The notes: generated from the sequence alone by a model not told the origin. Shown: positions 16,938 to 42,628, numbered from the stretch's first letter. The stretch is DNA of 42,628 nt from Asterionella formosa (GCA_002256025.1 NKIB01014556.1:1-42628), one strand, 5' to 3'. Program-made: numbers and translations.

Positions 16938-19147
16938 CTATGGGCCTGAATCATCGTCCATCGAATACTCTGTCAGACCAGATACGACAGAAATGTCGCC
17001 CAATGAAACTCGGCGTCCGTGCCCTGTGAAATAGCGACGGTTTTTGAATGTCTTAGTTGCCAGCATCGCTTCCACTTCATCATAGATACAGCCTAGGGCT
17101 ACCAAATTTGTGGAAGGGTTATCATCAGTTGCCCCATCAATCCAATAAGTGAACATCTGTCCCTTGCCTTTCATGTCAATCAATCCTCGAGGAATAAAGT
17201 TAAACTGCTTCTTGTCATGATTGGAGAAATGAGCAATCTTCCCGTAAGTGATGCTACTGCAATGAATTTGACCAGGCAAACCCGTGCTTTCATGGCGAGA
17301 AGTAGTGTTGACCATGTCACCAAAAACACAAAAGCGGGGTGCAGCATTACCAATAACTCCGGCAGAACATTCGCCACTATTGATCCCAATTCGAAGTTGG
17401 ATGGGTTGACCATCTAGTGGTGATAACACTAGCTTACAGCAATGCAACACGGCAATGGCAAAATTCGCTATCAATTCTGCGTTGTCGTCGTTTGCGTTGG
17501 GCAAACCACAGGCACAAATGTATGCATCTCCAATCGTTTCAACTAGAAAATGCGCAGAAAGGATCAGAAAAATATTTCACCATAAGACCAGAGTGGTCAG
17601 CGATTTTGAACTCACCTTTATAAATCTGGAATTTCTCGGCAAGGAAGTCCATCACACAGTATAAGCGGTTCAATAAATCGACGACGTCCATGGGTGCAAT
17701 GCCAGTGCATCTACGCATGGTGAAAAAGATTAGAAACAACCATGATAAACGAAACTCGCCGTAGCAACCTTATGACAACTTACATGGTGGTAAACCCCAC
17801 AATGTCAGAGAAAAACATTGTCACGTCCCGGTAGAGCTCAGGCTCAACAACCTTTCCAGCTCGAAGGTCATCAGCAACCATTCTAGGAAGCATTGAATAA
17901 AGAAGGTTGTTAGAGACATCCTTCTCTCTCTCTAGATTCTTGCTTAACTTGTCGAGCTTGAAAGCCGCCTTCACTTCGGCGACTATGTGTTCCCCAAGAA
18001 ATACAGCGTCGCGTTGAAAGCTGTGGAGGGGCAAGTCCGACATTGTCAACCCCATTTTAGTTAATTCAGCGACATTTTGAACGTCAGGGGACAGAAAGAA
18101 GACCACCCGATAAGGATCTTGAGAAAGCTTGATCATGTTTCCCTTTAGAGCAACTTTGTTGATGCTTGACTGCAAAAAGAACGTCTGGTCTTCGAGTTTC
18201 CGGAGAGCATGCCATTCCCAGATTCCATGGAGAGGCTTAGTAATCTCCATTACTTCACTAATCTTTTTACCAACGAGATCACTCTTGTCTACCTTAAATA
18301 GATTTGGTAACGCCTTCCCGATTTGCAAGATGACAAAATCCTTGTCGACGCAGACATGAAAAGGAAAAATTTCCTTCATTTGATCCCCCGATATTGAAAC
18401 TTGATATTCACCACCGTTGCGTTCTATTGCTGTCTGAGCCACTTCATTTCCACAAACAGTATCCTCTGTGATTGCTCCGCTGAAAGGGCATCGCGCACCG
18501 CTTGGAATGTCTGTTTTGGTAAATTTTGGAACACCAGAAGCCCATTCCCTAACGGTGATCTTCCACTGTTCTGATTCGTCCACTGCTGAAATGCGGAAAC
18601 TAGTGAATGCTGCTCCTTCAACGTCCTGCTTCTGGAGCTGCACCATGTTGATGGCGACATCAAAGTGAAATCGTGCGACTTCCTTGACGAGTCCTAGAAC
18701 AATTGGCACAAGTAGATTGCCTCGCTTAGAAAAATAATGAAGGATAATAGAGCCTTCGATATCTTCGTCGTCCTCGCACCAGAATACCGGCTTGATCATA
18801 CCACGAGGAAAGGCTGATTCCAAATGATCATGCAATGCATTAATATTGCTTAACCAAGTTCGTAGGGTAGATCCTTGACAATTCAACAATTTTTCAAAGC
18901 CTTCTGCTCTTGTAAACTCCATGAAATAAACACCAAATGCCTCTAGTACATCGTCAACCGAAATATCCAACACTTCACTGGCAGCAACAACAAGTGCAAC
19001 AGTAGATTCGTCGGAGTATCGCTCGTGACGGATAAAGCCGCCGTCCTTCACAATACATCCTGCTTTTTCTTTTACGGCATGCCAAGTCTCCACTCCAAAC
19101 TTGGAAATGACCAGTTTTTCGGTGCAGTCATTGATCCAGCCAAACAT
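16938..19147 (-). CDS. Soluble guanylate cyclase beta-like protein (H-NOX/HNOB, HNOBA, coiled coil, class III cyclase); exons 19147-17784, 17710-17616, 17542-16938, ~687 aa
   Basis: MFGWIN start, heme-ligand motif NALHDHL, YFSKR (YxSxR), IFPFH, LTMSDLPLH, LLYSMLPRMVADDL, FSDIVGF, YKVETIGDAY (across intron 2), RIGINSG and PRFCVFGDMVNTTSRHES. Both GT-AG introns keep the frame. Confidence 0.95.
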
Positions 19148-23727: not shown

Positions 23728-26700
23728 ATGGTTCGAACGACTGCTTGCAAGGAAGCAACCACATCCGCGGCGATGACATTTCACGATTCACAAGATAGAT
23801 CAGATCTTACGATTGACAAAGCAATTGAAGCAGCGAAACAATCAAATGCGACATTAGTGGCCTCGTTGTTGGGATGCAAGCGCTCCCTTGCCAGTGGACT
23901 CGACCAACCTTTGCATCAATCAACCAAGCTTGCTGCTACACTGTTGGATCGGAGCTCGGATCTACATGGTTGGAGGACTCTATTGTTGGTTCCTGCTTCC
24001 TATGACACCCCGTGGAGGGCTGCCTGTAAAATTGTGGAGGAATCATATGCAAGCAGAGACAACTGGACGGGCCTCGCGGAGATTCAGACTTTCTTGCAGG
24101 AAACATTTTCGAGTTGGTGGAAGTGCGAACGAGAGGCAAAGGTCATTCATCAGGGGGTATCTATTCAGTTGGACGTTGTTCCTCGTGAACTGGTTTTAAA
24201 ATTGGCGGATACGGTTCTAAAGCCGTTGTTGGAAACGGATAGCAATTTATGCGATCAACGTCGTCATTGGTTCGCTTCGTTAGACGTGATTACCACTATT
24301 GTTTCCCTGAGCCGGGAACTCGAGGGTGGCGATCTTGTTGAATTCGATTCCACAGTTGCTGGCACGGTATTAAGGAAAGTATTTAACTCCGGCATTCGCG
24401 ATGATTGCCTGTTGCCGTGGCTATCAATGGCGTCGGATCTCAAGCCGCTGTTGCGACCATGCGATTGGAACAGCCTTCAACTCAAGGTGGAATCCGCTTT
24501 GACTATCGTTCCGTGTAAAGTGCCTCTCTCGGATCTTCCTGGCATTGGTAGGTCGATCGCCTTGTTTCTGTCGAATTGCGACGACGGCGGGGATGAACTA
24601 TTTATCAGGTGGAGACAACTACTTCCCAAAGTTATTGCTGCAGCATCGAAAGATATACCAACATACTCAACTGTCGAGGCCATGCTAAGATCCTCTCTTT
24701 CTTCGTTCTCAACACATGACTTACATACATGGTGGAATTCCCTTCGTTCTGCCGACTGTGAGCATTGGGTTGCAGCCAATATACACCTTTTATTCCTCCA
24801 TGCCAGTCAACATTCTGGATCACGACTAGTATCTGCTTTACTATCCCAAGCACTGGTCAAGAATGGTGTCGACGACCTAGACTTGGCACCCAAATGTTGG
24901 GACTCTTTGGTCCGATTGCAAATTTCTGATCGACAAGTGGTAGCCAACATTGATTACGAAAAAACAATTCTGGAGGTACAGGAACTTCTCCGCGACATTT
25001 ATTATCATGGGGAAGGAGTATTCAAAAGACTTAATGGAACCCCAGAAAAAAATCTATCCACTAGCGTTATCTGTGAAAGTATATTTTTAGGAGATACGAA
25101 GCTTCAAAAGAGATCGCACCGACTTCATGCAACAGAACGCGGGCAACTTTGGGTAAATGCTGCAAACCAGGTACTTCAACGACAAGGAGAAAATTTGTCT
25201 GCATCTAATGGCAGCACAAATGAGGACGTTTTAATGGCTGTGCTAGTTATGGTAACAATTTTCTGCGAAATTCCAGAATCTCGATCATCACTGTTGAGGA
25301 CTTCAATACAGCGGTTGATAGGCGACCATAGTGAGGCAACACTCCACTGTATAACAATCAAGATGATAGTGCAATCATTTTGTCAGAACGGCCAAGAACT
25401 GGACATGCAAGTGGAAGATTTCAATCAGTTCGCAGATGCGTTTGTGCAACGATTGGATGAAAGGGTCTGTTTCGACCTTGCAACGGCTCTTTGCCCTTTA
25501 TGTACCATGCGGTCATCAATGCTATCCATCGCACGCAAGCTTTTTAATACGCCTATAGTTTGGTGGATGAAAGATGCAACCCGCGTTGCTCAGGAGGGAT
25601 ATGAAAAAATTAAATGTGCTCTCTTTATACTCAGCTGCTTAATGAACTACCACGACACGGACGGTCTTGAGGCACGGATCTTGATCTCTGACATGATTGT
25701 GCTCAACAAACCTGCCCTTCCTTTATCTGTCCGATCATGGTTTTTCAAATTGTTGACGTGTCGCGTCAAGAAATTCGAACTCTCAGTGTCAACTATTGGA
25801 TGCCTTTACCGTGCATGCCTTGCAAGGACCCTTTACTTTTTCGATGATCGAGCGAATGGAATTTTGTTTGTGCCGAGCCGCGTTTTTGTGGCCTGGGGTA
25901 GTGCTCCGGTACGCTCAAGTCAGCAAGAGAGCCTTTCTGACTTGCTACTTGTGATTCTGGCAATAGTTGGTCATGCCAACGAGCTGATACTGAACAAGCA
26001 TACGACGTTATATTGCGATTTCGTTGACGAAGTATTGTCAGGGTTATCGTCACTTCTTGTCGATTCAGTAGGCACGACATACCTCGATCGATGCTTTGAC
26101 TGGGATGATATTGAAAATAGCCACACAAATACCAAGGTAACATGTGCGTGTCTACTGGCAATCTACCGGGCATGTGTTTGCTCCAGTCAAGGGATAAAGA
26201 CACCATCGGTTAAATTCACAAGAGTATTGGGAAAAGAAAGTCACTTACGAATATGGCGATCTCGAATAGTAGACGAGGAGCGAGCACAATACCAAAAATA
26301 CTGTACTTTTCCCCAATGGGCGAGTATAGAACCTGATGAGGAGGAGATACGAACATGTGATGTTAACAAGCAAGAGATCGACTTGGTCTTTCAGTCGCTA
26401 TGCAACTTGTTTCTGGATTTAATTTTGAGTCCTTTGTGGGATTCGCTCGCTGGTGCTGCACGGACACATAATGCTGCTCATGCATGTAGTTTTGTCGTAA
26501 TGATAAAGCGGGCTTTCAACACCTCGCAACTGTCAATCACAAATGACGATTGGGTTGATGGAACCACAATGCCTCACACTATCCCAAAATTCATCAAGAT
26601 TTCCTACCTATTGTTTCAAAGTTTGCTTCATGAGAAGCGGTCAATTGAAGAAATTGAATGTGTCCTGACTGCAATTCTCGACAATTGCTTATTACTTGCT

Positions 26701-28506
26701 TGTGGATTTAAGTCTCGACGCCTCAACTTGACCCGCGATAACCTTGTGGAGATTTTGGATTCTGTTCTTGGCTTGTATAGGAGTTTGGGAAATGAGGATA
26801 ACACGATCAAATTGATTGCCTACTTGGATGAGAAATGCCTTAACGACGCAAACTATACTTGTACTGACGGTTTACTTCGCAAGATATGCACTTGCGACGA
26901 CGTTAACGAAGCAATCAGATTTATTCGGTGTTCGATATTGGATCTTTTGGTTTCTTGTTTGCAGAGATTTAACGACTTGACATTTGTTCTAGTCACGTCT
27001 ACTGAGATCGAAATCGGGATCTATAGGATGTTTTGCAGTGATCTGAGACAAGGCCTGGAGGGCCTTAGTGGGGGAATGACAGACAGAATGTATGTTCGAT
27101 TCCTAGACTGCATTGAGTTATCTTCGTCGATACTATCGAGGATTCATAATGACAGTGAAACGGTGGCCGATAGTAACTATGAATTAAGCGCATCAAAACA
27201 AGAAGGTGCAATACTATACGATATTCTTATCACCTTTCCCGTACGAAATAGAACTCTATTCAAGAAGACGCTGCAACTTGCTATGAACGGTTTGCACTTC
27301 CTTACACACTCTATCAAGTGGAAAGATCCAACTGCAGATGTTTACAAGTCATTTGACCTTGCCGTTGTTGTGATGCAACAATGTTTGCCTCTTTTGGAGA
27401 AGCTAAAGACAAGCGATACATCAAAATCTTGGGCCGTCATGGCTGGTCCTGATCACGTTTCTCTTGATATTGACTATCATGCGATAGAGTTAGATGATTC
27501 GTCGATAGATTCCGAACCCCCCGTCCAGACTATCCCCGCAGTAATAGCAATCTCGCGGTGGAAAGGCACGGACCATTACTCCAAGCAAAAGTCCCCAAGG
27601 AAGCTGCAGCTACCAACAAAGCAGCATTTATATTGGGCATTTGATACTGCTGTTGCTTCGATGGAGCTGACTTGCGACGAGACACTTGCCGTCATGCGAG
27701 ATTCACTGCACCAAAGCCACGTTTCCGATGTTCAAACTATATCACGGGGAAAGTTTTTGCATGCGACAGTGGCTTTTGTCGTCGCATTATTGAAACCAAA
27801 CATTGGAGTGGATTCCAGTCTTGCGAGCGCCTTACCCAAGTCATCAACATTGAAATTGTGTTCCCTGCTAGCCAAAATTTTCAACACTCTTCAGAGATCA
27901 TGCCAAATCATATTGGAGTACCTTGAAAAAGGTTTACCCTCTCAAACATTCATCGCCCTCACTCTGTTGGTTTCGTGGTGGAAGGGCTCCACGAAAAGTG
28001 ACAATGACCTGTTGAATCTGACTAGAGATTGGATGGACCATGCGAGAGAAAAGGTTCATGGCACCAAAGAAAGCAGAAACCAACAGGATGAGTCGGTGAT
28101 CTCTCGCGTACAAAGGATTACCCTGAAAATGGACGAGGTCGAGACAACGTTGGAGAAACTTACCTTCTTGCTACATCAAAGGCATAGCAAGGTGGTGATC
28201 CGAATTTCCACTCTCGACGATGCACTGACCGCCGTTGGTGACTCAGATTTGAAAGGAGCAGTGACCATGAATCAGTTGGTATATCATCTTATTGATAGAA
28301 TGAACACTGGACGGTTCGCCTCGTCTGAAAGTGTGGAAGGGACCGTTTCCCGGCGACCATCCGTTCTTAAGAAACGGAAGCGAAATGTTGGGCACCTGAG
28401 AAGTCGTAATAAGGTTGTTGATAATTGGCTTCACCTTGATCGAGCACTTGATGATAGCGATGATGATGCATATGTTGACCTCGAAGATTTCCTCGCGGAC
28501 GGATGA
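23728..28506 (+). CDS. 1592-aa helical-solenoid protein, putatively a divergent FANCI-like protein
   Basis: Uninterrupted 4.8-kb Leu-rich ORF, so coding status is near certain. The segments VPLSDLPGIGRSI, VTIFCEIPESRSSLLRTSIQRL, ALCPLCTMRSSMLSIARKLF, LSVRSWFF and QESLSDLL occur in the same order as FANCI motifs I recall. The confidence value refers to the product call. Confidence 0.5.
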   Translation: MVRTTACKEATTSAAMTFHDSQDRSDLTIDKAIEAAKQSNATLVASLLGCKRSLASGLDQPLHQSTKLAATLLDRSSDLHGWRTLLLVPASYDTPWRAACKIVEESYASRDNWTGLAEIQTFLQETFSSWWKCEREAKVIHQGVSIQLDVVPRELVLKLADTVLKPLLETDSNLCDQRRHWFASLDVITTIVSLSRELEGGDLVEFDSTVAGTVLRKVFNSGIRDDCLLPWLSMASDLKPLLRPCDWNSLQLKVESALTIVPCKVPLSDLPGIGRSIALFLSNCDDGGDELFIRWRQLLPKVIAAASKDIPTYSTVEAMLRSSLSSFSTHDLHTWWNSLRSADCEHWVAANIHLLFLHASQHSGSRLVSALLSQALVKNGVDDLDLAPKCWDSLVRLQISDRQVVANIDYEKTILEVQELLRDIYYHGEGVFKRLNGTPEKNLSTSVICESIFLGDTKLQKRSHRLHATERGQLWVNAANQVLQRQGENLSASNGSTNEDVLMAVLVMVTIFCEIPESRSSLLRTSIQRLIGDHSEATLHCITIKMIVQSFCQNGQELDMQVEDFNQFADAFVQRLDERVCFDLATALCPLCTMRSSMLSIARKLFNTPIVWWMKDATRVAQEGYEKIKCALFILSCLMNYHDTDGLEARILISDMIVLNKPALPLSVRSWFFKLLTCRVKKFELSVSTIGCLYRACLARTLYFFDDRANGILFVPSRVFVAWGSAPVRSSQQESLSDLLLVILAIVGHANELILNKHTTLYCDFVDEVLSGLSSLLVDSVGTTYLDRCFDWDDIENSHTNTKVTCACLLAIYRACVCSSQGIKTPSVKFTRVLGKESHLRIWRSRIVDEERAQYQKYCTFPQWASIEPDEEEIRTCDVNKQEIDLVFQSLCNLFLDLILSPLWDSLAGAARTHNAAHACSFVVMIKRAFNTSQLSITNDDWVDGTTMPHTIPKFIKISYLLFQSLLHEKRSIEEIECVLTAILDNCLLLACGFKSRRLNLTRDNLVEILDSVLGLYRSLGNEDNTIKLIAYLDEKCLNDANYTCTDGLLRKICTCDDVNEAIRFIRCSILDLLVSCLQRFNDLTFVLVTSTEIEIGIYRMFCSDLRQGLEGLSGGMTDRMYVRFLDCIELSSSILSRIHNDSETVADSNYELSASKQEGAILYDILITFPVRNRTLFKKTLQLAMNGLHFLTHSIKWKDPTADVYKSFDLAVVVMQQCLPLLEKLKTSDTSKSWAVMAGPDHVSLDIDYHAIELDDSSIDSEPPVQTIPAVIAISRWKGTDHYSKQKSPRKLQLPTKQHLYWAFDTAVASMELTCDETLAVMRDSLHQSHVSDVQTISRGKFLHATVAFVVALLKPNIGVDSSLASALPKSSTLKLCSLLAKIFNTLQRSCQIILEYLEKGLPSQTFIALTLLVSWWKGSTKSDNDLLNLTRDWMDHAREKVHGTKESRNQQDESVISRVQRITLKMDEVETTLEKLTFLLHQRHSKVVIRISTLDDALTAVGDSDLKGAVTMNQLVYHLIDRMNTGRFASSESVEGTVSRRPSVLKKRKRNVGHLRSRNKVVDNWLHLDRALDDSDDDAYVDLEDFLADG

Positions 28507-34130: not shown

Positions 34131-35844
34131 AGCAGATATTGAGACATTATTCTGTCTTTCTGGATGGCATGTTGGTTTCGATTAAAACAACTAAGAGAGA
34201 GAGAGAATAAGCGGTCAGATATAATCAATAAACAAAAATTAATTGAAAATAGATTTTGAATTCAATTGCAACAATTTCGCTGACTCTTTTCATCTCATCT
34301 TTAAGAAAAAATGTCAAAGTAAGAAATGACATATGTCAAAGTAAGAAATGATATGTGTCAAAGCAAATGGTATAATCAAACGTCACTACTGGAACTGGAG
34401 GGAAAGGAATTATTCAAGACGATCATATGCTCATTCTGTTGGAGGATGTGCAGTGGAAAGGATGTGTGACCACCAGCATCATTATTATATATATTAATAA
34501 ACAGCAATCCATTTAACTCGATTTGTGTTTATCAGTGATCGAGCATGATTCAAATAGTAAAGTTTCCTTAGATCTGTAGAAATAATTACGTTAGGTCAAA
34601 AGCTAAAATACTATTTGATCAAAGCACTCCAAATGTTAGATCAATAGATCAATAGACTTGATTGTTCTATCGTTAGATCGTAGATTGGAAAATCATTTCA
34701 TAACACAGTAACAGTGTTGTATTAACGACGATGACATTGTTTGATGAATGAGTTTAGAATGAATTGATGACATACATACATTCAATGTATAATACAAACG
34801 TTACACTAATTGATGCAACATTAAAAACTGTTTGATATAATAACAATATGTATATAACAATCATGCATATATATGTTTATGATCAAACATGCAAAAAGTT
34901 ATTGATCAATAACTTTTATGGATGGTCATTTAAAACCCCGGAATGCTGCCAAAATTTTGGGGCAGTCTATAATAAAGAAAAATGTTAGGCCTAACACTTT
35001 TTTCATTCACAGACGACGTCCTCATGTATGATTTAAAAACCATTATACTGTGGGTTATCATTATGAGGCAAATTGATGACATTAGAAGCTTCATATCTCA
35101 AGATATATTAACTTCACCCAAGTTTTTTTTAGACCTAGTGGTACCTGAGAGGGCGAGCTACATTAACCTTCGTACTTGCTTCAACATTACCATGCAATCG
35201 GACTGAAATAATTTGAGTCGTAACAAAAAAGGACAACTCTCAGTTTTTAGGTTGTACATGGTAGACTGGTACCGTGGTATTCCGGTACCAGTACCTACAC
35301 ATAATATTTAGGACCGGTATCATGAAGAAATCCTTTGTTTTTGCAGCAAGCTTGGTCGTCAGCCGTATACCTAAGCGTCTTGTGACGTCAGTGAGGTCAG
35401 GAAGCGAACTGAAGTGACGTCCTTCTTACGATTCAAATTGATGGCTGCTGCAGCTGGGCTGGGGATGATGTACGGTCCTACATATGGTATGGCTGTGCCC
35501 AAGGAAGATCTTGAATTCTTTGGTAAATGCATCGGCCACCAGTACCAGTGCAGGTACCCGGTTGGCATTATCTTCATTGTCATTACAACTGTAGCAGGTA
35601 CAAGGTACTATGTTTCAAGGTACCAGTATTATATATAAGCAAGTCAGTCAACGAATCTCAGCCATGTCAAACTCATTTTTGTAAAAATAGTTAACAAAAT
35701 TGTTGTTGTTGTTGTTCGTTGTTCTCATTTTGCCCCATTCCATTCTTTAGTACGTCCTATTACTCATTGATTCTGCTGCTACCAGCTTCCTCTCCTCTGC
35801 TCTACTCATTCTCTCATCAGCATCACCAACCGTGATTGAAAAGT

Positions 35845-38800
35845 ATGGTTTCGAAGGTGCTCATCGCGCTGTTGTTGCTGGAAGCTTCCGTTTCCGTCGG
35901 CGCGTTTCTGCACCCACTCCGACAATCCTTTCGATTGGCACTCAACGTGGGCACTGGGATTTTTGACGACGCAGCAAGCGGCAAGGCCTTTGGAGCCACA
36001 CCGAGCAATCCTTCTTCCAATTCTCCTAAAGCAAGGCCGCAATCCACCCGAGTTGAAAGCAAAGATGTTGTCATTGTCGGTGGAGGATTGGCTGGGTTGT
36101 CGGCAGCGCTGTATTTATCACAAATGGACCCGAATCGACAAATTACTATCTTGGAGAGAGAAGATCCTTCCCAGACACTGACAGTTGTCGGTAGCTTTGC
36201 AGCCGCTGGTATGTTGGCACCACAATCGGAGCGATTGCCCAGTGGACCCCTCCTGGATTTGTGCCTTTCGAGTCGAGCCCTCTATCCAGAATTTGTTCGG
36301 TTGGTCGAGAAATTGGCGTCGTTTTCAGGAGACGAAGGGAAAAAGTTTTTAACGTATGGTGATGGAACCGTTGGATATGTCACTTCGGGGGGCTTTTTGG
36401 CCCCTGCGTTTGCTGGTGATACTGTTGCTACGTGGGCACCTCCTCCAGGAAGCGGATCCGCATTTTGGCTAGACGAATCGCAAGTTCGCGAGTTGGAACC
36501 GAATTTGCATCCTAATGTGGTGGGCGGATGGTGGTTCCCTCAAGATGCAAGTGTCGATGCTCGTAGATTGACATGTTCCTTACGAGCTGCATGTGTCTCA
36601 CAAGGAGTTCAGATCCAAACCGGCAAGGACTATGAAGTCAAATCCTTGGACTTTGCTGATGGAGCGTGTCATGGATTATACACCGAAGATGGTATGTACA
36701 TATCCGCGAAGACAATTTTGTTGGCTAATGGGGCTTGGATGAGATTCTTACTTCCAGTTCCCATCGAACCGCATAAGGGGCAATCCATATCGCTCAGAAT
36801 GCCTTCAGATCGACCACCTATTCTACAGCGAGTGCTCTTTGCTCAAGATACATACATTTGCCCAAAGGCAGATGGACGTATTGTAATTGGTGCTACCGTT
36901 GAGGTTGGGAGTTACGATGCCGACATCACACCTGCAGGAATGATTCATATCCTACAACATGCCTTGGATATGGTTCCAGGATTGAAGGATCTGCCAATTG
37001 AAGAAACTTGGGCAGGCCTTCGTCCCACCACTCCTGACAAGGGGCCCATTTTGGGAAAGACGTCATGGGAAAATTTATTTCTCGCTGGAGGCTACTGGCG
37101 AAATGGTGTCTTACTCGCTCCAAAAACAGGTCAACTAATAGCATCTCTCATTGCTGGAAACAAATTGACTCCTTCTGACGATGCATTGTTGACCTCATTT
37201 TCGTTGGAACGATTTGCTAGTGTCGAAGGCGCTGTAAAGCTGGCTGCCAACACCCGTTATGCTGCATCGATGCACCCAGTACAGCGACGTTCACAGCCAC
37301 TTGGGGTTGGTACCGAGCTGGGTTCATATTCCAATGCACGAAATGCTCGGGAAGAGCGGGAACAAGACAGAGCGGCTTTGTTTGAAATGGGTGATGACGC
37401 GCTAGAGCAAGCAGCACAACTTGGAGTTCAAGATGGCACAGCTTTCAACTGGGGCGATGTGACAATGGAGAAAAAGACGTTAGCTACCTTTAGGAAGGAA
37501 CAAGAAGCATCTCGAATTGTCGACGAGTCGAAAAACATATGGCCAGCAAATGATAAAATGGGATCAGCTCAAATATCAGAGGGAATGTCGTTCACAGGTA
37601 CAACCGGCGATGATCGTTCGCGCACCTACCAAGCGATCCAAGACTGGAGGGGATCTCCAGCTTCTCCTGGAAATGAGATAGGACAAGGACCGGCGGAAGT
37701 GTCCATAGCAAAAGAATTGGATGCCATGAGAGCAGCCCAAAGCCTTGATGATACATCAGAAATGGTTGATTTCGCATTTGACAAGGTTGATTTCAATCAA
37801 CGCGGATCTCGGGAGGACGAGATGGATGCCATGAGTGCAGTCCGAAGGAGTAACCTCGGTGTCAGTGATAATTTCTCAAGACAGAAACCTGCGATCAAGA
37901 AAATTAGAATTTTTCAGGAAGTGCCGCCTGTAGATAGATTTGTGTCGACAAATGCATGGCCGACAAATCAGGACATAGCATCATTGCTATCATCGAATCA
38001 GAGTGGTTCTACAAGTGACAAGCAGCCCTTGGCCGTCGTGTCAAAGTCCTTGCAAGCCTCACGTGTAGCGGAAAAAGCATCAACGAATTCGTGGCCAACA
38101 AACCAATACATGGCATCCTTGCAAACGTCAGTAGCGTCACCGTTTGAAAGCAAGGCCGATGCGCTCCCTGTCGCACAAGCGACGCAGCCCATCGCTTCCA
38201 ATGCATGGCCAACAAATCAGTACATGTCATCATTGCAACCGTCGAAGATGGTTGATGATACTAAACCGCTGCAAGCCTCTCGTATTACAACTGCATGGCC
38301 CACAAATCAGTACATGGCAGCCTTGCAACCGCCGGTAGTGAAACTTTTCGACAGCACGACCAATTCCATCTCTGTCTCACGTGAGGAACCTGCTGTTACC
38401 GACATCAAAGCGTTGGAAGCACCACCTGTTATGGAAAGAATGTCCACCAATGCATGGCCAGGAAATCAGTACATGGCAACGTTGCAAACAGCAAATATGG
38501 GTGGTGCCACCGGCTCCAGGAAGCCATTCGACAACGTAAAAATACCAATTCAAGGCTCGTTTACTGCGCCGGCGTGGCCTACAAATCAGTATATGGCAGC
38601 CTTGCAACAGTCTGCAGAGAAGCGTCCCGACGGCACGACCAATTCCATTCCCGTCGCACGAGAGGAACCGACCGTTAGTAGCATTGTAACGTTGGAAGAA
38701 ATTCCAACTGTAATGGAAAAATCGTCCACGAATGCATGGCCAGGAAATCAGTACATTGCAACGTTGCAAACCCCAAATATGGGCGGGGCCACCAGTTCCA

Positions 38801-40047
38801 AAAAGTCATTCGGCGTCGTCAGAACATCACTGCAAACCCCCCGTGTTGCCAATGCATGGCCGACAAATCAGTACATGGCGACCTTGGAATCGATTACTAC
38901 AACACCTTTCGACAGCACGGCCATTTCCATCCCTGCCCCACGAGATGAACCGGCTGTTACTAGATTGAAAACGTTGGAAGGAGCTCGACCTGTAATGGCA
39001 ACAGCGACCACGAATGCATGGCCAGGAAACCAATACATGGCAACCTTACAAATGTCAAACATGGGTGGAACCAAGAGTCCCGTTCAGGTCGAAGGCGCCG
39101 TTACAAAAACACCTCAAGCAGAAAGAGCGTCAACTAGTGCATGGCCGACAAATCAGGACACGACATCGTTACAAACTGTCGTGGCAACCACGTTCGAAGG
39201 TTTGGACGATACCATATCTTCCTCCACTGTCGAGGATTTTGATATCGCAATTTCTCCGAATGAAGACGTTGACCTTTCTTTTATTTACCAAGCTATTCAG
39301 GGTCCCAAGTCATCTCCTATTGAAGAACCATCCATTGGAGCAACTGCAAATGATATCGATCAAGATTCCGTGGTATCAACTCTAGTGGAAGAGTTGAAAT
39401 CCATGAATGTATTGTCGTCGAATGCTTTCAATCCACTTTTCGAACCGACCCCAGCATTTGAATCCTTTTTGGAGCAACAAGCATCGAAGGTCTTTGGGGA
39501 GGATGATGACAACTTTAAGGTTCTGAATCGATTTTTCGACCAGATCCAAGATAGCCCAGCAACTGGAATAGATTTGGCGGTCGACTCCAGAGTAAATGGT
39601 CCAGTACCCACGTATCCAGCCATCAAGGTAAACGGCAACTCGAAGGACCTGAATCAACTTTATGAACGGATTCAAAAGAATAAAGCTACTACCGTTGAAA
39701 TGGGAGACCGAGAGGAAGTAAACCGACTTGATCCCGGATTTCGTATCTTCTATGTTGACGACGATGACGAACGGTATGAAGTTCCACCATTCACCCGTCC
39801 TGAAGAGATGGCGTCCTTGGTTGCCGCCAAGAAAGGTATGAAGACCGTAAGTCCAACGTCTCAGTTTGTAGAGGAACAGTACAACGAACAAACGTTTGAT
39901 GGATACACGACAATTCAACAAGCCAACGCAAGATCATCACGACAGGAGGAATTGGATGCAATGAAAGAATCCAGAAGAAAGAATCGTTTTGGAGGTTCTG
40001 ATCAAGTTGATGAATCCAAAATTGGAGCACTGAGGGGAAACTTATAG
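35845..40047 (+). CDS. thiO: Plastid-targeted glycine oxidase ThiO-like FAD oxidoreductase (DAO family) with a long repeat-containing C-terminal extension, 1400 aa
   Basis: First ATG at 35845. Signal peptide MVSKVLIALLLLEASVSVGA followed by F (ASAFAP-like) and an S/P-rich transit peptide. VIVGGGLAG, SFAAAGMLAPQSE, WAGLRPTTPDKGPILG and GGYWRNGVLLAP define the oxidase domain at ~36060-37220. Confidence 0.85.
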   Translation: MVSKVLIALLLLEASVSVGAFLHPLRQSFRLALNVGTGIFDDAASGKAFGATPSNPSSNSPKARPQSTRVESKDVVIVGGGLAGLSAALYLSQMDPNRQITILEREDPSQTLTVVGSFAAAGMLAPQSERLPSGPLLDLCLSSRALYPEFVRLVEKLASFSGDEGKKFLTYGDGTVGYVTSGGFLAPAFAGDTVATWAPPPGSGSAFWLDESQVRELEPNLHPNVVGGWWFPQDASVDARRLTCSLRAACVSQGVQIQTGKDYEVKSLDFADGACHGLYTEDGMYISAKTILLANGAWMRFLLPVPIEPHKGQSISLRMPSDRPPILQRVLFAQDTYICPKADGRIVIGATVEVGSYDADITPAGMIHILQHALDMVPGLKDLPIEETWAGLRPTTPDKGPILGKTSWENLFLAGGYWRNGVLLAPKTGQLIASLIAGNKLTPSDDALLTSFSLERFASVEGAVKLAANTRYAASMHPVQRRSQPLGVGTELGSYSNARNAREEREQDRAALFEMGDDALEQAAQLGVQDGTAFNWGDVTMEKKTLATFRKEQEASRIVDESKNIWPANDKMGSAQISEGMSFTGTTGDDRSRTYQAIQDWRGSPASPGNEIGQGPAEVSIAKELDAMRAAQSLDDTSEMVDFAFDKVDFNQRGSREDEMDAMSAVRRSNLGVSDNFSRQKPAIKKIRIFQEVPPVDRFVSTNAWPTNQDIASLLSSNQSGSTSDKQPLAVVSKSLQASRVAEKASTNSWPTNQYMASLQTSVASPFESKADALPVAQATQPIASNAWPTNQYMSSLQPSKMVDDTKPLQASRITTAWPTNQYMAALQPPVVKLFDSTTNSISVSREEPAVTDIKALEAPPVMERMSTNAWPGNQYMATLQTANMGGATGSRKPFDNVKIPIQGSFTAPAWPTNQYMAALQQSAEKRPDGTTNSIPVAREEPTVSSIVTLEEIPTVMEKSSTNAWPGNQYIATLQTPNMGGATSSKKSFGVVRTSLQTPRVANAWPTNQYMATLESITTTPFDSTAISIPAPRDEPAVTRLKTLEGARPVMATATTNAWPGNQYMATLQMSNMGGTKSPVQVEGAVTKTPQAERASTSAWPTNQDTTSLQTVVATTFEGLDDTISSSTVEDFDIAISPNEDVDLSFIYQAIQGPKSSPIEEPSIGATANDIDQDSVVSTLVEELKSMNVLSSNAFNPLFEPTPAFESFLEQQASKVFGEDDDNFKVLNRFFDQIQDSPATGIDLAVDSRVNGPVPTYPAIKVNGNSKDLNQLYERIQKNKATTVEMGDREEVNRLDPGFRIFYVDDDDERYEVPPFTRPEEMASLVAAKKGMKTVSPTSQFVEEQYNEQTFDGYTTIQQANARSSRQEELDAMKESRRKNRFGGSDQVDESKIGALRGNL
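37945..39174 (+). repeat. Coding repeat array: 10 x (T)NAWP(T/G)NQYM(A)xLQ
   Basis: Copies near 37951, 38086, 38200, 38290, 38449, 38570, 38731, 38851, 39013 and 39136, conserved in DNA as GCATGGCC(A/G)..AAA(T/C)CA(G/A)TACATGGCA. Confidence 0.95.
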
Positions 40048-40981
40048 TTACATCGCTAATGTATTGGAAGGCTGTGATGCGCAATACCCAACTAACCTCC
40101 AATAGCTGTATCACAGCCCTACTGTGGCACCACATCAGCTCCGTTTTCATTAAATTTTCATTTCCATTGGTACCCTTTCGTGACTATTTTTCGAACTTTT
40201 GATCGTCGAAGTCACAACCTTCTTCACTCCGCTATTGAATCGAATAAATAACATGTTGTGCAATTCTAGTAGTCCACTTGTGGTCTATGCCAAGGTAACA
40301 ACACCTGTTGTTGTTTAGCTAAGTTAGTAAACGCTCATTTTGTCTCCGCAGCAGTGACAAGATTGCGATGTTCCTTATTTTTATTTTCAACTATTTTAGA
40401 TCATTTGCTCACATTTCCCTGATGGGCTGTTTGCTATTGCTGCCCCGCCTCTTCCTGGCTCGGGCATTTTTTCGGGTTGGCCTTGAACTTTGAGAGCCAC
40501 TTGTCACCATGCTATACAACCCTTTGCTTGCAGAGGAGGGAGGAGTATTGTTTGTTACTAACTATTTTGGAACATTTGCTTGGGGGAGGAAGGGAGCGTT
40601 AGAGGATAGAAACAATTGGCTGTGCTGACTATGATAATGAGCACCAAATGTGCTACAAGATCAGAAAATTACAAAGCAGCTCACACCACACTCCAAATTT
40701 TGTGAAGATTTGGATGGATTTATAAAAAATATTATGATTTATTGAGAAAAGAATCAAGATTTGTCTTAATGTTGTTTTCTGACAAAATTTTGGAATTGAG
40801 TTGTCTCCTGGTATTCATTTCAGAAGAAGTTTAAGTGCCTTGGATACTTGTAGGCATCATGCCTTTATTTGCCTTGGTTTGGAAAAATATGTAGTGTTAT
40901 CAGCAGTATTTAAATTTATTAGTCCGATAATTGTAGCTACTTGTAGTAAATATGGAAAATGAGGAACCAGTGCTAGATATC

Positions 40982-42628
40982 TGCAGGTTGCAATCATTTT
41001 GCCGAAACTGAAATGCGGTACCGGCACTCAAATTCGAATCTTACAGTATTGTTGTTGTGAATCACCTCTTTACATGACGTGTCAGTATATGTCTGTGTCT
41101 GTTTGTCTGACAGTACCTATGCATCTTACCGGTATTTAAATCATCGTTCTTCTATATCAACTTAATCTAATCACTCTTTTAACAAACACACCTTCCAATC
41201 TCCTTTTGAGCTTGTCAGGTTAGTTATCGGACTCCCCTCCTCTATCGTCTCCTCGTTCATCGACCTCGTCGATCTCTCTCGTCCCCTCTTTCACTGCAGG
41301 TTATGAGCCCAAGCTGTTTCCTTGAAAGAAACGAAATTGTTGATTGTTAATTCGATCTCACTGTCGGCGCCGATCGAAAAATCTCGTTCGCTTTTGATTG
41401 TTTTCGCATCATTCATTTGGCTGCTACATCTGTCTATCTATATACTACACACAGCAGAAGTAGACAAGTGTATTGAGTAATCTTTATCAAAAGAGTGCTA
41501 TTTGGCATTCAAAGGTTGCCTGCTTTTCATTCGCAACACATCGTCAACAGCGTTTTTTTCTTTTTTCGTCGTGAATCGTTTTCATATCTTCACACTATTT
41601 TGGCTACGAAAATACTCTACTGTAAACGATCATCTGTGGGTTATCAAAACAAATGATCTCCGACTGTATTCAGAGCACCTTCCGGCAAACAATATTCCCA
41701 AGAGATTACAAGTGGAAAGTCTATACAATAAACTCAAATCACTCCTCCAACATTTACCTACTCCTCGCACCCATCGTTCCACTCATGGGATCACTCTACC
41801 TGTTCATGCTGATGTGGTTTCAGTCTCTACTATTGACATTGCACACACATTGGAATGTGCTCTTCAAGGCCACCCTGATACCACTACTCATGACCACAAT
41901 CCCATTCATGCGCTCATGATTTCGGCCATTAATCGCGCGAGAGTTCCTAATCCTCACCAAATATGTCTCTTTCCTTGGTGTGGTGTCAAACATGACCCTC
42001 TCTGTTGTTGTATTTGTTTTGGTAGTAACCATAAAACGCCCGATTGTTGGCATCTCAATGGACTCTCAGACAACCGAAAAGAACTACTTGTCAAAGCACA
42101 TTCTGCTAAAATTGCTCGGCTCCCTCCGTTTGATGCAACCCCTGCTCGACCTCCTCGTGGTTCTCTTGGTCGCTCTGGTCCACAAGACACCACTCCAGCA
42201 AATACTCAACTCTTTACAGTTTAGGCTATTTCCACCATGCCTGAGGACAAGAATGCGGAGCCTACACACCTTCAGTCTGTCATAGATGATATACATATCA
42301 CATCGAAAGAGAACATGTATAACATTGCACCATTTTCTCATCAATACAGCTGGGATGTCCCCACTCCTAGATCCCCTGGACTTCATGATATTGACAATGA
42401 TCAGGTTATCACATCTTCCCCAGTTTATCACACAGGCATGGTCGCTTTTGTTGCTCATATTCGTGATTCACACAAGGTTGTTGATGACTTAGCTCTGATA
42501 AACTCTGATCCCACTGAAGTTCTTACACATATCTCTTCCTCTCTACCGCACTCCTCCACTTCCTCATCCACCACTGGTCTGGAATTTGCTGCAAACCTCC
42601 ACGAAGGTGAAACTTTGATGCATGTGGA
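40982..42628 (+). mobile_element. Copia LTR retrotransposon 5' end (putative LTR 40982-41298, PBS, decayed gag), running off the window
   Basis: TGCAG...CTGCA terminal inverted pentamer, immediately followed by GGTTATGAGCCCA (41299-41311, Copia-type internal tRNA-iMet PBS). ORF 41502-42224 has the zinc knuckle CCICFGSNHKTPDC. The LTR start is inferred. Confidence 0.7.

Follow-up and report, generated by a model that had tools for sequence, protein, structure and literature searches.

The 42,628-nt stretch of Asterionella formosa DNA analyzed here (GCA_002256025.1, NKIB01014556.1:1-42628; hereafter the window, with positions counted from its first letter) contains, on its + strand, a gene for a 1400-aa protein, which we refer to as P0001. 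The protein is composed of a predicted plastid presequence, a glycine oxidase domain of the ThiO type and a long C-terminal tail, in which a short Trp-Pro motif recurs ten times. The main result of our analysis is that selection acts on the peptide of this motif and hardly at all on the spacers between its copies. The layout of the gene and of the motif array is as follows.

35836..40047, + strand: open reading frame (ORF), first ATG at 35845
35845..40047, + strand: intron-less coding sequence of P0001 (ThiO plus tail), 1400 aa, stop codon included
35666..40232, + strand: extent of the RNA-library contig X2 (4567 nt), which spans the whole gene collinearly
35845..36060, + strand: putative bipartite plastid presequence, assigned by inspection; signal peptide up to ...SVGA before F (aa 1-20), then a transit-peptide-like stretch
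36061..37224, + strand: ThiO glycine oxidase domain (flavin adenine dinucleotide, FAD), aa 73-460, assigned by Pfam DAO, TIGR02352 and PDB matches
37540..37560, + strand: degenerate motif copy WPANDKM (IWPANDKM), aa 566-572
37945..39177, + strand: array of ten motifs and their spacers, aa 701-1111
37951..37989, + strand: motif 1, NAWPTNQDIASLL, edge copy with Y replaced by D
38086..38124, + strand: motif 2, NSWPTNQYMASLQ
38200..38238, + strand: motif 3, NAWPTNQYMSSLQ
38290..38328, + strand: motif 4, TAWPTNQYMAALQ
38449..38487, + strand: motif 5, NAWPGNQYMATLQ
38569..38607, + strand: motif 6, PAWPTNQYMAALQ
38731..38769, + strand: motif 7, NAWPGNQYIATLQ
38851..38889, + strand: motif 8, NAWPTNQYMATLE
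39013..39051, + strand: motif 9, NAWPGNQYMATLQ
39136..39174, + strand: motif 10, SAWPTNQDTTSLQ, degenerate edge copy
38292..39052, + strand: higher-order tandem repeat with a 282-nt (94-aa) unit in 2.7 copies (Tandem Repeats Finder, 75% matches, score 786)

This nuclear gene of a freshwater diatom is expressed and unspliced, and the array is present on the same RNA as the oxidase. Contig X2 agrees with the genomic sequence over its entire length (0 differences, 0 gaps, no joints). Contigs from the polyA library X6 cover 35613-38787 and 38807-40348, and those from X7 cover 35729-38653 and 38649-40349. Neither joints nor indels were found in any of the four RNA runs compared with the gene; therefore, the array belongs to a collinear transcript. 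Altogether, 17 sequence records match the stretch as a whole or in part, and 16 of them are recorded as RNA, coming from 14 studies, mostly of freshwater or lake metatranscriptomes; contigs of this kind reveal neither where a transcript ends nor how strongly it is expressed, and some DNA may formally have been carried over into the RNA libraries. The RNA contig ends lie ~180 nt beyond the ORF on either side, as expected of an mRNA. A search of 34500..41500 for Rfam families, including the TPP (thiamine pyrophosphate) riboswitch, gave no match at E<=1.

To compare P0001 with its relatives, we searched with its tail (aa 460-1400) and retrieved 31 other proteins of 779-1098 aa; the members of this diatom-type ThiO set are named P0002-P0032 and P0034-P0036. 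Diatom bipartite plastid presequences of the ASAFAP type have a Phe directly after the signal-peptide cleavage site, followed by a transit-peptide-like region. The N-terminus of P0001, MVSKVLIALLLLEASVSVGA continued by FLHP, has by inspection the form of a signal peptide followed by this Phe, and the four closest relatives (P0002-P0005) share the same [A/S]-F junction. According to this presequence pattern, P0001 is predicted to be targeted to the plastid.

Pfam DAO aligns with aa 74-435 (profile positions 1-353 of 353, E 1.3e-59), and TIGR02352, the ThiO family (EC 1.4.3.19), aligns with aa 75-439 (profile positions 1-350 of 351, E 2.2e-73). The TIGR02352 score of 247.4 bits is just under the cut-off of 250.8, probably due to an insertion at ~aa 170-205, and the family scoring next reaches 111 bits. 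The seven best distinct PDB sequences are all named glycine oxidase or oxydase (E from 2.1e-43 for 7cyx to 2.3e-29), with sarcosine oxidase ranking after them (E 4.2e-19). The GxGxxG start of the FAD-binding Rossmann fold is present (VVIVGGGLAGLS, aa 75-86) and is common to P0001 and bacterial ThiO (7cyx, 4ysh, 6j38, 1ryi, 1ng3; TIGR02352), which aligns end to end with the N-terminal 390 aa of P0001. In contrast to the bacterial proteins, which are tailless and only 376-395 aa long, P0001 has in addition the presequence, the insertion, which is conserved in the relatives, and the 940-aa tail. Bacterial ThiO is a tetramer; the enzyme provides the dehydroglycine from which the thiazole half of thiamine is made in the bacterial-type route via ThiG/ThiS. 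A published study indicates that diatoms use the ThiG route (PMC4260697).

The insertion relative to bacterial glycine oxidases occupies aa 170-205 (~36352-36460, …GYVTSGGFLAPAFAGDTVATWAPP…). Many of its columns are invariant across all 32 relatives. In the AlphaFold model of P0002, the corresponding region (residues 179-239) has low confidence.

An earlier note on this DNA, made by a model from the sequence alone, had described a plastid-targeted ThiO-type oxidase of normal size, continued by ~940 aa of open frame, and had asked for confirmation that the array lies on the same unspliced mRNA. The presequence and the domain matches agree with that description, the collinear X2 contig supports the unspliced mRNA, and Pfam gives no match past ~aa 460: for the ~940-aa tail no family was found, the 16 rows listed at E<=1 all peaking within aa 65-458. 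The composition of the array was likewise described correctly, namely ten motif copies, two of them with NQD, a degenerate IWPANDKM near 37540, and S/T/P/A-rich spacers of ~15-40 aa.

Exactly ten WP[TG]N[QD] motifs are present, with Trp at aa 705, 750, 788, 818, 871, 911, 965, 1005, 1059 and 1100. Their Trp codons lie within nt 37957..39142, and the 13-aa cores extend over 37951..39174. When the ten copies are aligned, the consensus is STNAWPTNQYMAxLQ and the general form (S/T)NAWP(T/G)NQYMAxLQ; W, P, N, Q and L do not vary, and the A preceding W is at least 90% conserved. The cores are separated by spacers of 15-39 aa, which consist of S, T, A and P to 47% (133 of 281 residues). All Trp and Tyr residues of the array sit in motifs, the only aromatics of the spacers being six Phe among the 281 residues. 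Copies 4-9 form three 94-aa units, each built from a WPT motif with a long spacer and a WPG motif with a short spacer. The net charge of the array is near zero. The composition of the spacers, their varying length and their neutral evolution (see below) suggest that they may be disordered. The tail had been called 'disordered-looking' in the earlier note; for the array, these three properties agree with that impression, whereas charge-hydropathy analysis marginally places it on the 'ordered' side. A six-frame scan did not detect the motif anywhere else in the window.

The selection test was based on a codon alignment of the three 94-aa units, partitioned into 26 motif columns and 68 spacer columns. 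For the motif columns, the proportions of synonymous (pS) and non-synonymous (pN) differences are 0.402 and 0.056, respectively (pN/pS 0.14), as opposed to 0.378 and 0.351 (pN/pS 0.93) for the spacer columns. None of 20000 randomly resampled sets of 26 columns had pN as low as that of the motif; a low pS is unremarkable (11870 of 20000 sets). All ten cores taken together have pS 0.43 and pN 0.14. Since synonymous divergence is equal in motif and spacers, neither recent duplication nor gene conversion nor a constraint at the nucleotide level is the cause of motif conservation. Thus, purifying selection maintains the motif peptide, while the spacers drift almost neutrally, which bears out the earlier impression that the spacers diverge much more than the motif. 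With pS of ~0.4, the motif copies are old and have been maintained.

One of the RNA runs, X8, represents a closely related strain or allele. It is 95-99% identical to the gene over 36311-39775, and the length of its array is unchanged. Among the 39 listed single-base differences, 20 fall in the array, including four in motif codons: two of these are synonymous, while T1013A affects the variable x position and N1062S results in WPGSQ (compare WPASQ of P0004).

The tail as such turned out to be the rule and not an oddity. All 31 relatives carry the DAO domain and a long tail; source labels, where there are any, read glycine oxidase or thiazole synthase, and for two proteins a diatom is named. 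Accordingly, of the oxidase with a long tail that the earlier note had singled out, the tail is real, and what is unusual is the amplification of a motif within a variable linker. Three parts are conserved among the relatives, namely the oxidase (51-75% identity to P0001), a helical extension (to ~aa 540-555) and an end module, with the variable linker between the last two; the presequence type is also shared. An array is found in none of the 31 relatives. The motif itself is nevertheless not an invention of this protein. P0004 and P0005 have one clear copy each, NAWPASQYLASLQ and NVWPASQYLATLQ, at aa 596/597 (form N[AV]WPASQYLA[ST]LQ), along with a degenerate copy, AWSTGQSL. At the same linker position, P0014 has a form that lacks W, PTNQYMDSLE, and P0026 has GDYMESLQ. 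Apart from P0004/P0005 (one copy) and P0014 (W-less), the motif is absent from the relatives.

A second linker motif, [YF]EGSADAxTVG, occurs at about aa 520-720 in P0007-P0009, P0012, P0014 and P0019-P0021, and also in P0024, P0026, P0027, P0030 and P0036. In the form [YF]EG[ST][AV]D[AV] it is present in 12 of 32 proteins, plus P0036. Many tailed relatives have two end modules together with this motif, which in P0001 is lost or degenerate. In P0014 and P0026, YEGSADAYTV directly follows the QYMxSL-type element. Array copy 2 of P0001 reads SLQTSVASPFESKADALPV and looks like a decayed composite element of this kind.

In a maximum-likelihood tree built from the oxidase domain, P0014 lies outside ((P0004,P0005),(P0001,(P0002,P0003))), with supports of 94/93, 100/100 and 97/84. 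Based on the occurrence of the motif at the same linker position in orthologues, it is older than the array. The simplest history would then be a single ancestral linker motif that was amplified ten-fold in P0001 and lost with linker shortening in P0002/P0003. The older linker element (...QY[ML]xSL[QE]...) would have been tandemly duplicated in the P0001 lineage, with one stage proceeding via the 94-aa two-motif unit.

We then considered whether the array exists elsewhere. A profile built from the ten 32-aa repeats was used to search 1.84 billion representative proteins (E<=0.001), and it returned two matches, P0001 itself (10 stretches) and P0033. The latter was rejected as a second carrier: it is an unrelated repeat protein without any WP motif, which matches only the spacer-side columns (IAALQPSV). 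Thus, no other array was found among these representatives, single copies being below the sensitivity of the search. A scan of metagenome contigs, a collection that does not include the organism's own gene, with the back-translated motif produced two loci with one match each, in ORFs of 64 and 34 aa; we read such single matches in short ORFs as chance. The earlier expectation that the motif might recur in other plastid-targeted proteins was therefore not borne out at the level of arrays. In the literature searched, we found no description of the array or of the diatom ThiO tail, although part of that search was too loose to be informative.

Outside the array, three further regions of the tail can be delineated.

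37225..37500, + strand: predicted helical extension with invariant columns, kept in all relatives (RYAASMHPV...GTELGSY...), aa 461-552
39178..39630, + strand: acidic region C-terminal to the array, aa 1112-1262, net charge -20
39631..40044, + strand: conserved C-terminal (end) module, aa 1263-1400, in all relatives, often twice, only on ThiO

BLASTP matches between the tail and the relatives extend from the oxidase side to ~aa 538-558 and resume at the end module, which aligns at aa 1263-1397 of P0001 both by BLASTP and in alignments with relatives. This module, ~135 aa long, has the pattern LxxxYxxIxxNK ... RPDPGFRI..D...EVPPYT ... TxDGYxxIQxAN.R.SR.EEL.AMR.AR..NR. When it was searched alone, no stand-alone version was found among proteins of 83-265 aa, and all eight longer proteins that match it carry PF01266. 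The ESM Atlas gave no usable match. The AlphaFold2 model of the module, based on a 32-row alignment, has a mean predicted local distance difference test score (pLDDT) of 68.7 and a predicted template modeling score (pTM) of 0.26; it suggests a helix, a beta-hairpin and three helices, with no confident compact fold. Foldseek comparison of this model with the PDB gave nothing at E<=0.001 (best E 1.1), which is uninformative given the pTM of 0.26. The full-length model of P0002 (pLDDT 55.5) is too poor to judge docking of the tail on the enzyme. The end module may be the real docking element of diatom ThiO. Self-comparison of the tail by BLAST detected no related pair outside the array. MAFFT alignment with P0002/P0003, the sole indication in this case, weakly suggests that aa 585-700 could be a decayed copy of the end module.

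How can these observations be accounted for? A repeated, selected peptide in a drifting chain, derived from an older single-copy motif, argues for a short interaction motif that has been made multivalent. We therefore favor, with a confidence somewhat above even, a lineage-specific, selected array of short linear motifs on plastid ThiO that acts by avidity and whose partner belongs to the thiazole pathway or is ThiO itself. Each copy would be a short linear binding motif for a protein: a Trp-Pro anchor and, after it, a short amphipathic helix (NQYMAxLQ) whose Y, M and L lie on the same face. With ten copies in every chain, the oligomeric oxidase could be held or clustered on an oligomeric plastid partner. 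Since neither the tail nor the end module nor the ancestral motif is found outside ThiO, we prefer as this partner the thiazole synthase ThiG/ThiS, or else ThiO itself, to a general address in the pyrenoid or thylakoid. The earlier note had proposed a multivalent docking or phase-separation module tethering the oxidase to a plastid sub-compartment. The multivalent array in that proposal is supported by the selection pattern. A general address is not, as the motif matches no PYCO1 sticker and the exclusive association of the tail with ThiO argues against it.

Several points weigh against the interpretation as a multivalent binding array. Protein binding by the motif is itself something that we infer, and the preference for a pathway partner derives solely from the exclusive association of the tail with ThiO. 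Motif copies 1 and 10 read NQD and have lost the Tyr. The selection test concerns three higher-order units of one gene only, and the array variants of X8 are too few to add anything (motifs, 2 synonymous and 2 non-synonymous; spacers, 7 and 9). By charge-hydropathy analysis, the array falls narrowly within the 'ordered' range (H 0.448 versus a boundary of 0.414). A single motif copy scores ~30 bits and would be undetectable on other proteins by the profile search. The sister pair P0002/P0003 (817 and 814 aa) has a short linker and no motif; therefore, basic ThiO function does not depend on the motif. With the array present in one lineage and absent from its sister, its importance may be local.

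The favored interpretation has to be weighed against explanations in which the array is not a binding device at all. It might be argued that the array arose by neutral expansion of a tandem repeat in a linker that tolerates it and serves no function of its own, conservation being a mere reflection of recent duplication or homogenization. The uniqueness of the array to one lineage, its absence from the sister lineage, the neutral evolution of the spacers and the decaying edge copies would all fit. However, the units differ from each other at pS ~0.40, and yet motif pN is only 0.056 compared to 0.35 in the spacers, a difference reproduced in no resampled set. Moreover, the synonymous sites of the motif are as diverged as those of the spacers, therefore homogenization is not the cause of motif conservation, and the motif predates the array. 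We consider neutral expansion improbable. The motif might instead form the structural core of a folded repeat domain (a solenoid or some other regular fold), but this is distinctly improbable as well. The marginally 'ordered' charge-hydropathy position, the near-zero net charge and the regular alternation of WPT and WPG would be in line with it, but spacers that vary between 15 and 39 aa, evolve at pN/pS 0.93, are rich in S/T/A/P and have only six aromatics, all of them Phe, would not. In addition, relatives hold one functional-looking copy, which is impossible for a solenoid. The motif could also be a repeated site of processing or modification, that is, a site of plastid protease cleavage, a degron or a sorting signal. 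A short motif that stays conserved while the chain around it varies is equally what one would expect of a recognition site for an enzyme, and the tail is long and otherwise poorly conserved; however, neither a degron nor a single processing event needs ten-fold repetition, and we assign this explanation a low probability.

Other explanations accept that the motif binds protein and differ in the partner. Sticker-and-spacer arrays are known from dedicated scaffolds, namely EPYC1, PYCO1 and carboxysome linkers, and the Rubisco-binding motif of Chlamydomonas is also found on other pyrenoid proteins, where it serves as an address tag. Recurrence of this kind was sought for the P0001 motif, and no second array was found in the window, among the representative proteins or in metagenome contigs. 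The array could nevertheless be a pyrenoid or Rubisco sticker strip similar to those of EPYC1 or PYCO1, which recruits the H2O2-producing oxidase to the pyrenoid or drives phase separation with Rubisco. The architecture fits, as aromatic motifs are conserved in drifting spacers. According to the PYCO1 study, PYCO1 of Phaeodactylum is, like P0001, a diatom plastid protein with tandem repeats, in which short aromatic motifs (a critical Trp, a Tyr) are conserved among low-complexity spacers and which work through multivalency; one of its elements, the helix AAEWGSMNQ / ASEWASMNT that binds the large subunit, has a W followed by NQ, comparable to AWPTNQ, and variants of this helix occur in other Phaeodactylum proteins (PMC10288592). 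On the other hand, the W-to-N spacing differs by one residue from that helix, and the PYCO1 motifs taken from that study, KWSP(R/Q)GGS, GTGYNP and AAEWGSMNQ/ASEWASMNT, are all absent from P0001. Whereas PYCO1 is a pure scaffold without an enzyme domain, the array of P0001 is located in the tail of an enzyme; homology between the two was not detected, and a link of P0001 to Rubisco is unsupported. The Rubisco-binding motif shared by EPYC1 and other Chlamydomonas pyrenoid proteins, which is mentioned in the PYCO1 study (PMC10288592), likewise recurs as a short helix along a disordered chain, but it belongs to another lineage and is a different motif. The lack of a second array among the representative proteins, the confinement of the ancestral motif and the tail to ThiO, and the motif-less sister lineage further argue against a pyrenoid address. 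Weaker points in the same direction come from other species and from tables that may give identifiers only: three supplements of the PYCO1 paper contain none of the terms glycine oxidase, thiazole, thiamine, FAD dependent oxidoreductase and D-amino acid, and the main text of the PyShell preprint contains none of glycine oxidase, thiamin, oxidoreductase and FAD. Our literature search for a connection between the pyrenoid and glycine oxidase found none. Taken together, we regard the pyrenoid explanation as quite unlikely.

A more far-reaching version, unlikely but worth stating, is that ThiO is self-scaffolding: the ten stickers of each subunit would assemble the oxidase into a condensate or metabolon of the plastid, either together with ThiG/ThiS or in or at the pyrenoid. 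If this were true, the H2O2-releasing reaction would be confined and the labile dehydroglycine handed over, and no sticker array borne by an enzyme would have been described before P0001 in a red-lineage plastid. The end module and [YF]EGSADAxTVG of the wider diatom ThiO set would then be an ancestral, low-valency version of the docking system.

As to the favored avidity array, it would place stickers on a biosynthetic enzyme, with the signature of selection confined to the stickers, and would offer a handle on the placement of a thiamine-pathway enzyme in the diatom plastid. The tail may be what allows nuclear-encoded ThiO to work together with plastid-encoded ThiG/ThiS. As far as our searches show, both an enzyme-borne sticker array and a ThiO-specific conserved tail without a known fold are new.

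Two other ORFs of the window are worth mentioning. The longest one, of 1592 aa, is located at 23728-28506 on the + strand and matches no Pfam family at E<=0.001. A 455-aa ORF at 17783-19147 on the - strand contains the haem-NO-binding domain HNOB (1.7e-37) and HNOBA (5.7e-35), and corresponds to the sensor part of a soluble-guanylate-cyclase-like protein.

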